Origin: Veillonella parvula
Lineage (GTDB): Bacteria > Bacillota > Negativicutes > Veillonellales > Veillonellaceae
Assembly: GCA_947096075.1 (NCBI GenBank)
Contig: CAMUQE010000001.1
Span: 1 to 59,600, forward strand
DNA length: 59,600 nucleotides
Reading direction: 5' to 3'
Below the pieces are notes generated by a model, which was not told the DNA's origin, searched no databases, and saw only the letters and a list, made by a program, of their open reading frames with translations. The translations under genes were made by a program, and so were the position numbers. How positions within the stretch are numbered: the stretch's first letter is position 1; every line of letters begins with the position of its first letter. Below are positions 52,282 through 55,703 of this stretch, one piece after another.

Positions 52282-53207
52282 ATCCCTTAATTACCATCGT
52301 TGGACCTACAGCGGTAGGCAAAACAGAACTTACCTTGGACTTAGCAGAACAGCTGCATGCTGAGGTTATTTCTGGTGATGCTTACCAGGTATATAAACAA
52401 CTTAATATTGGTACCGCTAAACCATCGCTAGATGAACTTAATCGGGTGAAACATCATCTCATCGATATACTGGAACCAAATGACTCATATTCGGTATCTA
52501 TTTTTCAAGATCAAGCCAAAGAAATAATAGCAAGATTAAAAGATAGAAATATTCTTCCTATTCTGTCTGGTGGTACAGGGCTTTATGTTCAATCATTATT
52601 GGAGAACTATAACTTTAATGATGTTAAGCCTGATGAAAGTTTACGAGCAGAACTAGATGAGCTATATAATACCAAAGGTATTGAAGGCTTACGAGAATAT
52701 GCTTTTACTTTAGGAACAGAACATAATATAGAAATTCAATATAGTGATAAGCATCGCTTATATCGAGCTATTGAGATCTTGCACTATGGTGATGTAGATT
52801 CGTTACGAAATCAAACTAAAGCTGGTTTATCTTATAAAGGGCCTGTTATCGGTCTCATGAGAGACCGTGATAAACTATATGAGCGCATCAATTTACGGGT
52901 TGATATGATGTTTGATGCAGGCTTGGTTGAAGAAGTGGAACAACTCATAAAATCCGGTGTGAAGCCAGATTGCCAAGCATTTAAAGGTATTGGCTATAAA
53001 GAAGTTGTAGACTATATAAATGGCAGTATAACATTAGATGAATGTAGAGATTTGATCAAGAAAAACACGCGTCATTTTGCGAAGCGCCAAATCACTTGGT
53101 ATAAGCGCATGCCATATATTGAATGGATTCATATTGATAATAATACATCTAAAGATTTTATATTTAATAAAGCTATGGAATTAATTCGTAGAGAAGGATT
53201 AGCATGA
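52278..53207 (+). CDS. miaA: tRNA dimethylallyltransferase
   Basis: GPTAVGKT, IGTAKP, GGTGLY, IGYKE, FAKRQITW. Confidence 0.97.
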   Translation: MNPLITIVGPTAVGKTELTLDLAEQLHAEVISGDAYQVYKQLNIGTAKPSLDELNRVKHHLIDILEPNDSYSVSIFQDQAKEIIARLKDRNILPILSGGTGLYVQSLLENYNFNDVKPDESLRAELDELYNTKGIEGLREYAFTLGTEHNIEIQYSDKHRLYRAIEILHYGDVDSLRNQTKAGLSYKGPVIGLMRDRDKLYERINLRVDMMFDAGLVEEVEQLIKSGVKPDCQAFKGIGYKEVVDYINGSITLDECRDLIKKNTRHFAKRQITWYKRMPYIEWIHIDNNTSKDFIFNKAMELIRREGLA

Positions 53208-54442
53208 CATTAGAAGAAATACGCAGTAAAGCCCTTGAAATGGCTGAACCTGAATTTAAAAAGTTTGAACCTATTGCATTGGCCAATACAAAAAAGGTAT
53301 TGAAAGCTTTTAAAGAATGCCAAGTATCTGATTATCATTTTACGGGCACAACTGGTTATGGTTATAACGATATAGGTCGTGAGAAATTAGATGAAGTATT
53401 TGCCTATGTATTTAAAGGTGAAAAGGCCATTGTACGACCGCACTTTGTTTCTGGTACACATGCATTAGCAACGACGCTAATTTCTTTGATGGGAAATGGT
53501 TCTAAAGGTACTGAATTTATATATGCTGTTGGGGCTCCTTACGATACGATGCAATCTGTTATCGGTGCATCTCGTGAAGTGCGTGGTTCTTTAGTAGAAA
53601 AAGGCTTTACCTATACAGAGGTATCTTTGAAAGATAATACCTATGATGTAGATGCCATTGCTAAAGCTGTTAATGATAATACTAGAGTAGTGGTTATTCA
53701 ACGTTCTCGCGGCTATAGCACACGTGAGCCATTATCTATCGCAGATATTAAGATTATTGTAGACGCTGTAAAAGCTAAAAATCCGAATACAATTTGTTTC
53801 GTAGATAATTGTTATGGAGAGTTTACAGAGCTTCAAGAACCTTTAGAGGCTGGTGCGGATATCATGGCGGGTTCGCTCATCAAAAATGCGGGAGGTGGTT
53901 TAGCACCCACAGGTGGTTATATCGTAGGTCGTGAAGAGCTTGTAGAAGATGCAGCGTATCAATTGACGGCTCCTGGCTTAGGTGATCATATGGGTTCTTA
54001 TGCACCTGGGTATCGTTTGTTTTTCCAAGGCTTATTTATGGCACCTCACGTAGTATTACAGGCGCTTAAAGGCGCTGTGTATACTGCAGCTGTAGGTGAG
54101 TTATTAGGTTATGATGTATTCCCTAAGGTAGATGCAGATCGTTATGATTTGATTCAAGCTATTAATCTGAAAAATGGAGAAGAAATGGAGCATTTTTGCG
54201 TAGGTATGCAGGCTTACTCTCCTGTAGATGCTCATGTACATCCAATTCCTGGTGATATGCCTGGTTACGAAGATAAAATCATCATGGCTGGAGGTACATT
54301 TGTACAGGGGTCATCTATTGAGTTGAGTGCAGATGGTCCTGTACGTCCTCCATATACGATTTTTATGCAAGGTGGTCTAGTATTTGAACATTCCATGCTT
54401 GGTATTTTAGGCGCCGCTGAAGAGTTATTAAAACATAGATAA
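53204..54442 (+). CDS. YnbB / 'aluminium resistance' PLP-dependent lyase family protein
   Basis: TGYGYNDIGRE, FVSGTHA, IQRSRGYS, FVDNCYGEF, GSLIKNAGGG, GSSIELSADGP. Confidence 0.9.
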   Translation: MTLEEIRSKALEMAEPEFKKFEPIALANTKKVLKAFKECQVSDYHFTGTTGYGYNDIGREKLDEVFAYVFKGEKAIVRPHFVSGTHALATTLISLMGNGSKGTEFIYAVGAPYDTMQSVIGASREVRGSLVEKGFTYTEVSLKDNTYDVDAIAKAVNDNTRVVVIQRSRGYSTREPLSIADIKIIVDAVKAKNPNTICFVDNCYGEFTELQEPLEAGADIMAGSLIKNAGGGLAPTGGYIVGREELVEDAAYQLTAPGLGDHMGSYAPGYRLFFQGLFMAPHVVLQALKGAVYTAAVGELLGYDVFPKVDADRYDLIQAINLKNGEEMEHFCVGMQAYSPVDAHVHPIPGDMPGYEDKIIMAGGTFVQGSSIELSADGPVRPPYTIFMQGGLVFEHSMLGILGAAEELLKHR

Positions 54443-54447
54443 TATTT

Positions 54448-54486
54448 AGAATCTCTTTCTTTTAGAGAAGGGGGTTCTTTTTATTT
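54448..54486 (+). terminator. Intrinsic terminator after the ynbB-like gene
   Basis: agaatctctttct / agaaagggggttct stem followed by a T tract. Confidence 0.75.
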
Positions 54487-54516
54487 CAAATCTTTTCAAT
54501 GTACCTATTTCTAGGC

Positions 54517-54547
54517 TATAATATAAGTTGCTATAATTTTATAGCAA
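54517..54547 (+). promoter_or_regulatory. mnmA promoter region: TATAAT (54517-54522) and extended -10 TGCTATAAT (54529-54537) inside a 20-bp palindrome
   Basis: ttgctataa-tt-ttatagcaa at 54528-54547. Confidence 0.55.
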
Positions 54548-54641
54548 TACTACTCGGACTTTTACACCGAACTAGTGGTTTACACGTCAGGCTTTCACCC
54601 TGATTAGTTTTATGATCAAGCGATCATTAAAAGGAGAAAGT
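54548..54641 (+). ncRNA. Candidate structured mnmA leader with two tRNA anticodon-arm mimics
   Basis: Hairpins tcgga-CTTTTAC-accga (54554-54570) and tcagg-CTTTCAC-cctga (54587-54603), plus atgatc/gatcat (54612-54627) just before the SD. Confidence 0.5.
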
Positions 54642-55703
54642 ATGGAAAAAGTTATCGCTGTAGCTATGAGTGGCGGCGTAGACAGTTCTTTAACTGCTGC
54701 AATGCTACTAAAACAAGGCTATAAAGTATTTGGTATTACTCTATGGTTATGGGTGAGTGGCACGCCCTATGATGAGGTGCCTCTTGCCGTAACAGATGCT
54801 AAGAAAATGTGTGATTTTCTTGGTATCGAGCATCATGTAATCGATGCTCGTGATGTATTCTACGAAAATGTAGTAGATTACTTTGTAAAAGAATATGCCT
54901 ATGGTCGTACGCCAAATCCTTGTGTATTTTGTAACAAAAATATTAAATTTGATTTGATGCTTAACCGTGCTCTTGAACTCGGTGCCACCCATATGGTTAC
55001 TGGTCATTATGCACAAGTTAATTATAATGAAGAAACGGGTTTGTATGAGTTACATAAAGGTGTTGATCCTACAAAAGATCAAAGTTATGTTATGTACAAT
55101 ATGAACCAACGTATTTTGAGTCATCTTATGTTCCCATTAGGTGGTCAATGTAAGACTGAAACACGTAAATTAGCTGCTGAATATGATTTACCAGTAGCTA
55201 AGAAACCAGATAGTGTAGATATTTGTTTCTTGCCTCATGGAAACTATCAAAAGCTGGTGGCAGAAGAAATGAAGGGAAAGCCAGAGTCTGGTAATATCGT
55301 TACCGAAGATGGTGAAGTGTTAGGTAAGCACAATGGCTTATTTAATTACACTATTGGTCAACGTAAGGGACTTGGTATTGCGTATAAGTACCCATTATAT
55401 GTTATTGGTTTTAATGGTGACCGTAACGAGGTCATCGTAGGTCCTAACGAACGACTCTTTACAAATCGAATGATTTGTAAGTTTTATAACTTCTTAGATG
55501 ATACCATTCATAAAGAATTGAAGGTACAAGGTAAGATTCGCTATGCAGCTAATCCTTCTCCTTGTACAGCACGTATTTTAGATGACGATACGATGGAGGT
55601 TATCTTTGAAGAACCACAACGGGCTATTACCCCTGGTCAGTCCGTAGCCTTTTATAATGGCACTCAATTATTGGGAGGTGCTGTTATCGATCGCGTATGT
55701 TAG
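54642..55703 (+). CDS. mnmA: tRNA 2-thiouridine(34) synthase
   Basis: AMSGGVDS, GRTPNPCVFCN, TGHYA, KDQSY, DSVDICF, YTIGQRKGL, AITPGQS; ATG 54642 behind AAGGAG. Confidence 0.97.
   Translation: MEKVIAVAMSGGVDSSLTAAMLLKQGYKVFGITLWLWVSGTPYDEVPLAVTDAKKMCDFLGIEHHVIDARDVFYENVVDYFVKEYAYGRTPNPCVFCNKNIKFDLMLNRALELGATHMVTGHYAQVNYNEETGLYELHKGVDPTKDQSYVMYNMNQRILSHLMFPLGGQCKTETRKLAAEYDLPVAKKPDSVDICFLPHGNYQKLVAEEMKGKPESGNIVTEDGEVLGKHNGLFNYTIGQRKGLGIAYKYPLYVIGFNGDRNEVIVGPNERLFTNRMICKFYNFLDDTIHKELKVQGKIRYAANPSPCTARILDDDTMEVIFEEPQRAITPGQSVAFYNGTQLLGGAVIDRVC

Follow-up and report, generated by a model that had tools for sequence, protein, structure and literature searches.

An RNA hairpin in the mnmA leader

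The window analysed here is a 59,600-nucleotide (nt) stretch of the Veillonella parvula genome (assembly GCA_947096075.1, contig CAMUQE010000001.1, positions 1 to 59,600 of the forward strand), and the element in question lies in the leader of mnmA, the gene for the tRNA 2-thiouridine(34) synthase MnmA, which thiolates U34 in the anticodons of tRNA-Glu, tRNA-Lys and tRNA-Gln. The leader region (54443-54641) sits between mnmA and an upstream gene of the PF06838 family, with miaA farther upstream and lepA downstream of the locus. It contains a conserved RNA element, namely a stem of 4-5 base pairs (bp) carrying a 7-nt loop of the consensus C-U-U-U-(C/U)-A-(C/A), that resembles the anticodon arms of the MnmA substrates and is restricted to mnmA leaders of two related bacterial families. 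We regard the existence of this element as near certain. A preliminary description of the window, made from its sequence, had recorded two such hairpins, hairpins 1 and 2, and their coordinates and pairings proved correct (Table 1).

Hairpin 2, the core element, has the exact geometry of an anticodon arm, and its loop, CUUUCAC, is the one proposed for it earlier, that of tRNA-Glu(UUC), as the genome's own tRNA-Glu confirms. It is the best match of our covariance model in the genome (31.9 bits, E 5e-5), and the core pattern occurs there once. When the leader is folded from the predicted transcript start, the stem of hairpin 2 forms with a pair probability of about 0.86, leaving the Shine-Dalgarno (SD) sequence mostly free. 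Hairpin 2 ends 38 nt 5' of the AUG, and hairpin 1, a degenerate copy with a UUU loop (26.4 bits, E 0.002), lies 33 nt farther upstream. Counting both strands of the 1.78-Mb genome, a CTTTCA[CA] loop is closed by a stem of 5 or more pairs, G-U included, at 17 places; hence, such a hairpin in a single genome proves little and is mildly unusual for a 100-nt leader, and the significance of hairpin 2 derives from its conservation across genomes.

A terminator-like hairpin at the end of the PF06838 gene, as judged from its stem and T-run, sets mnmA apart as its own transcription unit, and it is followed by a promoter-like site. In two RNA sequencing runs of a relative about 96% identical, assembled contigs begin at 54535 and 54562 and continue through mnmA, with no contig over 54300-54534 in either run; such contigs cannot prove a start site, and carry-over of DNA is possible. 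They agree with the predicted promoter, and the earlier placement of both hairpins downstream of the transcript start is thereby supported: the predicted promoter lies upstream of both and the relative's RNA spans from the leader into mnmA, which places the hairpins within the mRNA leader. Two gut metatranscriptomes available as raw reads (X19 and X20) contain no reads over the stretch and are hence uninformative on transcription of the leader. Downstream of the promoter-like site the leader comprises four hairpins (5'-proximal, 1, 2 and 3), the last followed by AAGGAGAAAGUAUG. The start codon of mnmA is the ATG at 54642 and not the first in-frame ATG at 54612, as indicated by the NCBIfam MnmA match and by the N-terminus MEKVIAVAMSGGVDSS, which is common to relatives.

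Table 1. Coordinates of the features at the mnmA locus of the window
Feature	Position	Strand	Details
PF06838 (Met_gamma_lyase family) open reading frame (ORF) upstream of mnmA	53204-54442		Pfam, 552 bits
Terminator-like hairpin and T-run ending the PF06838 gene	54448-54488 (hairpin 54448-54478)	+	14-pair stem, then TTTTATTTCA
Promoter-like site TTTTCA-18-TATAAT	54493-54522	+	10/12 consensus matches; predicted transcript start near 54529
Second, extended -10-like TGCTATAAT	54529-54537	+	read from sequence
5'-proximal hairpin	54528-54547	+	UUGCUAUA / UAUAGCAA, 8 bp; in the minimum free energy (MFE) fold
Hairpin 1	54548-54577 (core 54554-54570)	+	lower stem UACUA (54548-54552)/UAGUG (54573-54577); upper stem UCGG/CCGA; core UCGGA (54554-54558), loop CUUUUAC (54559-54565), ACCGA (54566-54570); closing mismatch A58-A66; Lys-type UUU
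Hairpin 2 (core element)	54586-54604	+	5-6 bp stem, 7-nt loop; UCAGG (54587-54591), loop CUUUCAC (54592-54598), CCUGA (54599-54603), plus wobble G54586-U54604
Hairpin 3	54612-54627	+	AUGAUC-AAGC-GAUCAU; immediately 5' of the ribosome binding site
SD AAGGAG, spacer GAAAG, AUG	54631-54644	+	spacer 54636-54640 complementary to the hairpin-loop CUUUC
mnmA, tRNA 2-thiouridine(34) synthase, 353 amino acids	54642-55703	+	NCBIfam NF001138, 407.9 bits (cut-off 284); TIGR00420, 346.9 bits

Conservation and distribution of the element

The window's family was surveyed in 121 genomes, in 114 of which MnmA was found, representing five genera (here g1, g7, g8, g9 and g10). The 15-nt core pattern CRGRCTTTYAMYCTG has 116 sites in these genomes as against 2 for a reversed-pattern control, and 112 of the 116, from 110 of the 114 genomes with mnmA, share the strand of the gene and are no more than 250 nt upstream of it; the three remaining sites away from mnmA lie in coding-like DNA. 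Among the four exceptional genomes, one is explained by a contig break, the leader being found at the end of another contig (G009, with its leader in L085), two have truncated genes (G052 and G114), and only the single g9 genome (G067) truly lacks the element. The other four genera all have a hairpin with a 7-nt CUUUCA(C/A) loop upstream of mnmA: GUCAGG-CUUUCAC-CCUGAU in the main clade of g1, CGGA-CUUUCAA-UCUG and CAGA-CUUUCAC-UCUG in its deep branches, AUACAUAUUCGGA-CUUUCAC-UCUGUAUCAUGUAU in g10, AUACAUCUUCAGA-CUUUCAA-UCUGUUUUGAUGUAU in g8, and AUACAUAGUCAGA-CUUUCAC-UCUGUCCCAUGUAU in g7. In g7 the hairpin stands immediately 5' of the SD, which its outer stem abuts, and in g8 the two are 13 nt apart. 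When 12 leaders drawn from genera with 68-80% identity in MnmA were aligned, the hairpin and the ribosome site alone stood out as conserved islands, the mean column identity being 47%. A candidate covariation of the outer stem AUACAU/AUGUAU in g7, g8 and g10 was dropped, the pair counts in the underlying alignment (A1) having been inflated by poorly aligned g1 rows.

Most lineages have a single copy of the hairpin, and the two-hairpin layout that had been likened to that of thrS is not ancestral. Hairpin 1 is retained in relatives with at least 92% identity in MnmA, with an A-C mismatch in one of them (G020), and is replaced by unrelated sequence in a genome at 89% identity (G016). A further relative at 86% identity (G068; L031 178-312) has three tandem, well-paired copies 42 nt apart, with the loops CUUUUAC, CUUUCAC and CUUUCAC. 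The proposal that hairpin 1 is a Lys-type mimic is thus upheld in so far as UUU-loop copies recur beside UUC copies in this relative, but hairpin 1 itself has a mismatched closing pair and was lost in G016; it is, from these comparisons, a real but lineage-specific, imperfect extra copy of the element. The tandem period differs between the two cases, being 42 nt in G068 as against 33 nt for the two copies of the window.

A covariance model (R1) was run against six genomes. The mnmA-leader copies alone scored at E <=0.002, and the next matches, which include true tRNA-Gln anticodon arms, had E >=0.2; five of the six genomes had contributed to the model, so that their own matches arise by construction and the lack of other matches is the informative part. 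We also considered a regulon with the motif in front of mnmE, mnmG, gltX and lysS, and rejected it, as neither the pattern search nor the covariance-model search gave any further significant copy.

To delineate the distribution beyond the family, we used a slightly wider pattern on a class-wide sample of 401 genomes. It is found in all 61 genomes of the window's family and in all 14 of f2, another family of its order (Dialister and Allisonella by label), and matches elsewhere in the sample are sporadic. Inspection of 20 pattern sites outside the window's family showed that only two, both from f2, precede mnmA and that the other 18 are unrelated to it; one of the latter is a genuine tRNA-Glu gene of another family, the anticodon-arm core of which is identical to the g8 leader hairpin. 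The f2 leaders (14/14 inspected) have the form UCCUU-CGGA-CUUUCA(C/A)-(U/C)CCG behind a TATAAT box. A 20-nt version of this form, searched in one genome per species across 185,579 species, recovered 40 stretches, of which 37 are on the mnmA strand and precede the gene by 42-309 nt, one has no room downstream within the stored stretch, and two are chance matches in Bacteroidota contigs. The mnmA-linked stretches are labelled Dialister and Allisonella, and a few short contigs in otherwise labelled bins are probably mis-binned.

Of 50 regions inspected upstream of mnmA in 26 other Negativicutes families none has the element (0/10 from the other two families of the order, f3 and f4, and 0/40 from 24 further families). 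Most of the 40 genomes of these 24 families (L106-L145) have mnmA in an iron-sulfur cluster operon, where it starts 10-20 nt behind an IscU-like gene (C-terminus ...KMHCSNLAADALHEAIKDY...), and in f4 it follows a cysteine-desulfurase-like gene. In the window's family, by contrast, the gene ahead of mnmA is of the PF06838 type. The two families with the element are ones whose mnmA has its own leader behind a predicted promoter.

The leaders from Dialister have further constant features. The -10 box ends 7-13 nt 5' of UCCUU in 32 of 38 leaders, placing the element at the very 5' end of the predicted transcript; all 11 aligned leaders recovered with a query lacking UCCUU have it unchanged; and an AAGGA SD is present in 37 of 37. 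Pairing of UCCUU with AAGGA is predicted at P >0.5 in 27 of the 37, irrespective of the distance between them. A search for a larger conserved structure in the Dialister leaders with RNAalifold gave a 4-bp hairpin only. Dialister-type leaders (e.g. L149 87-157; L078 148-219, minus strand; L151 350-429, minus strand) also have a AUGAUGGU block, invariant in 11 of 11 aligned, that lies 10-50 nt 3' of the mimic hairpin, mostly behind a variable G+C-rich hairpin in which the stem changes with pairing preserved. This block may be the start of a leader peptide, a pairing partner or a protein site.

The RNA nature of the element is apparent from a comparison of 23 distinct copies from both families, in which the evolutionary events are few and the sequences related. 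All 23 have a 7-nt loop in which, numbered as in tRNA, C32, U33, U34, U35 and A37 are invariant, with variation confined to position 36 (C or U) and position 38 (C or A). The stem has two invariant core pairs (C-G and G-C), together with a pair 29-41 that is GC in 11 copies, AU in 8 and GU in 4, being unpaired in none, and a closing pair 31-39 that is AU in 18, GC in 2 and mismatched in 3. Pairing is seen in 85% of the alignment cells as against 16-53% with a slid partner. Taken together, this pattern is supportive of an RNA hairpin, while falling short of being statistically decisive.

Likeness to anticodon arms and a candidate feedback on MnmA synthesis

The anticodon arms of the three MnmA substrates in the window's genome are CCGCC-CUUUCAC-GGCGG (tRNA-Glu), CCUGA-CUUUUAA-UCAGG (tRNA-Lys) and ACGGA-CUUUGAC-UCCGU (tRNA-Gln), and the same three loops are present in five further genomes from both families. 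The commonest leader loop is the CUUUCAC of tRNA-Glu, and all loop variants of the leaders fall within the loops of the three substrates. The Dialister core CGGA-CUUUCAC-UCCG equals the tRNA-Gln arm at 14 of 15 positions, with an identical stem and a difference at position 36 only. In g8, where the leader loop has A38, we looked for a covarying change in tRNA-Glu and found none, its loop being CUUUCAC there too. The elements are not tRNA genes: ARAGORN predicts none in the window or in six leader loci, and the Rfam tRNA model (RF00005) has no match at E up to 10 in the window or at E up to 1 in eight related loci. Nor do they belong to a known RNA family: in the window leader Rfam 15 gives no family at its gathering threshold and nothing above E = 3, the best overlap being preQ1-II (16.3 bits versus 47), and the only true match in the eight related loci, to skipping-rope RNA, lies outside the hairpin. 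The preliminary description had further seen a likeness to a tRNA D-loop in CUAGUGGUUUA, just 5' of hairpin 2. This did not hold up, as its GG reads GT in close relatives of the same genus and the length of the following T-run varies.

In Escherichia coli, threonyl-tRNA synthetase (ThrRS) represses its own translation by binding mimics of the anticodon arm in the leader of thrS, the textbook case of substrate mimicry. By analogy, we propose that the hairpin before mnmA is a substrate-mimic operator and that MnmA exerts feedback on its own mRNA by way of it, and we put the probability of this at about one half. MnmA autoregulation is the most economical explanation because the element occurs at a single locus, before the gene of the enzyme that binds this very shape; that the ligand is MnmA is inferred, as are the direction in which control would run and its level. 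Under this proposal, free MnmA would bind the leader hairpin as it binds the anticodon arm of tRNA, thereby lowering its own synthesis. Unthiolated tRNA-Glu, tRNA-Lys and tRNA-Gln would compete for the enzyme and lift the repression, and the level of MnmA would thereby track the pool of unmodified substrate tRNA. The step at which repression acts would probably depend on the lineage. In g7 the helix beneath the hairpin abuts the SD, and in Dialister the hairpin is predicted to stack on the helix of the 5' UCCUU with the AAGGA SD, such that binding of MnmA could lock the ribosome site shut.

Several observations weigh against this proposal. The hairpin stands bare: a review notes that MnmA also contacts the D-stem of tRNA, for which such a hairpin has no equivalent, unless, speculatively, the coaxial UCCUU helix in Dialister or an AUACAU/AUGUAU helix in the window's family were to substitute for it. 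The distance from the hairpin to the start codon ranges from about 22 to about 309 nt across genomes, and with so variable a distance the enzyme cannot in all lineages act simply by competing sterically with the ribosome. The predicted default state of the Dialister leaders already hides the SD, which fits a repressor less simply, and in g1, g10 and most Dialister the CUUUC of the loop has its complement in the spacer GAAAG at the ribosome site, leaving room for a protein-free account. In family f3 mnmA lies behind its own promoter, yet the element is absent. G36, the Gln anticodon base, occurs in no leader copy although tRNA-Gln is a substrate. Finally, RNAalifold supports exactly a 4-bp stem with a small covariation term; the compensatory stem changes expected earlier are indeed seen, but only in two of the four core pairs and through few independent events.

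The main rival is precisely such a protein-free role, in which CUUUC, and in Dialister also UCCUU, would pair with GAAAG or AAGGA as an RNA switch or anti-SD and so adjust translation or the stability of the mRNA; the resemblance to tRNA-Glu would then follow from its being complementary to a purine-rich ribosome site. We consider this unlikely, if well worth weighing. The first MFE fold of the window leader does pair GCUUUC with the spacer GAAAGU. Moreover, GGAGAAAG, which precedes just 5 of the 1017 SD-bearing long ORFs of the window's genome, is rare before starts yet kept in g1 and g10, where AAGGAGAAAG[U/C]AUG is preserved. In Dialister, the UCCUU:AAGGA pairing described above speaks for the same account, and a hairpin so close to the 5' end might act as nothing more than an mRNA stabiliser. 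However, g7, g8 and one Dialister-type leader (L095) keep the hairpin with no GAAAG near the start, for which reason we abandoned the idea of a universal kissing interaction between the CUUUC loop and the GAAAG spacer, and the fold from the predicted start in the window favours hairpin 2 over occlusion of the SD. The anti-SD account also leaves unexplained why A37 and the C-G and G-C pairs never vary, why the loop always has 7 nt and why the Dialister core is nearly identical with the tRNA-Gln arm.

The same conservation evidence could be read as an operator for another factor that recognizes U33-U34-U35 loops, such as MnmE/MnmG, an MnmM-like methyltransferase, glutamyl-tRNA synthetase (GluRS) or an RNase; mnmA expression would then be tied to another step of the pathway. 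Further enzymes of the xm5s2U (5-substituted 2-thiouridine) pathway act on the same anticodon loops, and a paper on an aminomethyl-2-thiouridine methyltransferase mentions U35 13 times (PMC9976899). Nothing, however, indicates a specific alternative protein, and the element occurs only before mnmA, once per genome, whereas a regulator with its gene elsewhere would be expected more often to act on several genes, its own among them; we view this option as somewhat less probable than the anti-SD role. An improbable extension of MnmA autoregulation is that MnmA thiolates the uridine of its own leader hairpin equivalent to the wobble position, the resulting 2-thiouridine (s2U) mark altering the fold or affinity of the operator. 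If so, arrays that combine both loop types, UUU and UUC, as in the window (two copies) and in G068 (three), could read the pools of tRNA-Lys and tRNA-Glu separately, and a bacterial mRNA would be modified by a tRNA thiouridylase within a feedback loop.

Three further explanations fare worse. In the window's lineage hairpin 2 with the following UUAGUUUUAU might be a weak intrinsic terminator acting as an attenuator: a loose terminator scan lists 54586-54604 plus TAGTTTTATG, and UUUU or UUUUU directly follows the stem in some relatives (g8, L023 and L031). But the T-run is absent in g10, g7 and Dialister, the stem has only three G-C pairs, and the relative's RNA contigs pass through the site into mnmA, making this a remote prospect and at most a lineage-specific add-on, itself possibly MnmA-dependent. 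Slightly more remote still is the notion that the inverted repeat, located near a promoter and in Dialister starting just after the -10 box, is a DNA operator for a transcription factor. An RNA hairpin rather than a DNA operator is indicated by the G-U pairs (4/23 copies), the strict orientation on the sense strand (112/112 adjacent sites) and the asymmetric centre, that is the loop, which is better conserved than the arms; besides, the distance to the promoter ranges from a few nt to about 90 nt. Least credible is a functionless, decaying remnant of a tRNA-Gln or tRNA-Glu gene, for although the match of the Dialister core to the tRNA-Gln arm would allow an origin from a tRNA fragment, neither ARAGORN nor Rfam sees tRNA-like flanks, and neutral decay would not leave the element invariant in two families amid a diverged leader.

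Parallels, implications and further features of the leaders

The thrS operator, work on which reportedly came from the Springer, Romby and Ehresmann laboratories, is the closest parallel. In both cases the gene for an enzyme that binds an anticodon arm has, in its leader, hairpins whose 7-nt loop displays that substrate's anticodon, multiple copies occur in some lineages, and competition between tRNA and mRNA for the enzyme is expected. The mnmA leader thus shares with the thrS operator the anticodon-arm geometry and the location in a transcribed leader, and would share enzyme binding if MnmA is the ligand. However, there is no sequence relation between the two, mnmA encodes a tRNA-modifying thiouridylase and not an aminoacyl-tRNA synthetase, and it mostly has one hairpin, at about 0 to about 300 nt from the ribosome site, joined in Dialister to the anti-SD:SD helix. 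tRNA-guanine transglycosylase (TGT), which acts on the virF mRNA of Shigella, is likewise an anticodon-loop modification enzyme that recognizes a tRNA-like mRNA hairpin, but its target is the mRNA of another gene, with no conserved dedicated leader element. PyrR, a homologue of a metabolic enzyme, resembles the proposed system in being a pathway protein that binds a small conserved leader hairpin to set expression, but it acts by transcription attenuation with a terminator/antiterminator pair (RF00515), and the only Rfam match to PyrR in the window is the upstream gene's terminator at chance level (16.9 bits versus a gathering score of 54). Yeast histidyl-tRNA synthetase (HisRS) is reported to bind a putative anticodon mimic in its own mRNA and to adjust its own translation to tRNA levels (Levi and Arava 2019, PMC6542539); on that account it too combines a tRNA-binding enzyme with an anticodon mimic in its own mRNA, though it is a eukaryotic synthetase and not a modification enzyme.

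A search of the full-text literature, with subscription journals outside its coverage, returned no paper on an mnmA/trmU leader and none on a tRNA-modifying enzyme binding its own mRNA, in keeping with the earlier surmise that the element is undescribed for mnmA. What would be new is the application of substrate-mimic operator logic to a tRNA-modification enzyme, this kind of operator being itself already known. To our knowledge, little has been established about how bacteria set the levels of their tRNA-modifying enzymes. If MnmA indeed reads the hairpin, the system would offer a compact model for matching the thiolation of the wobble uridine to the pool of unmodified tRNA in abundant oral and gut commensals, together with a minimal RNA that defines MnmA recognition. 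It would also constitute a natural experiment, the element being present in two lineages whose mnmA has its own leader, as against those with mnmA directly behind an IscU-like gene. Should MnmA not be the ligand, the leader motif is still conserved, bears a clear genomic signature and is as yet undescribed.

The 5'-proximal hairpin overlaps the second -10-like TGCTATAAT, and in two relatives (G093 and G070; L032 and L033) its pairing is preserved via one change from G-C to A-U and two G-U wobbles. Since pairing is kept despite the base changes, it is likely to function as RNA and not as DNA, probably as a structure or stabiliser of the mRNA 5' end. At the position of hairpin 3 relatives have other stems, GGUC/GACC, GGACC/GGUCC, GUC/GAC or CUAGGCAGA/UCUGCCUAG. 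In the spacer between hairpins 1 and 2 (54578-54585; also in L010, L011, L015, L017 and L019) the length of the T-run varies among close relatives from GTGTTTTACAC to GTGTTTTTTTACAC, and judging from this variation it behaves like a slippage-prone homopolymer. The skipping-rope RNA (RF02924) mentioned above is found in one g8 genome (G054; L053 261-343, on the minus strand of the locus, which is the mnmA sense strand) with 54.8 bits (gathering score 36.7; E 1.5e-11). It lies about 200-280 nt 5' of the mnmA start, upstream of the promoter, and is a separate small RNA, distinct from the mimic hairpin. Among the 32 tRNAs called by ARAGORN in the window's genome (G000) is one 'tRNA-Stop' with the anticodon TTA, which is either a suppressor-like tRNA or a false call.

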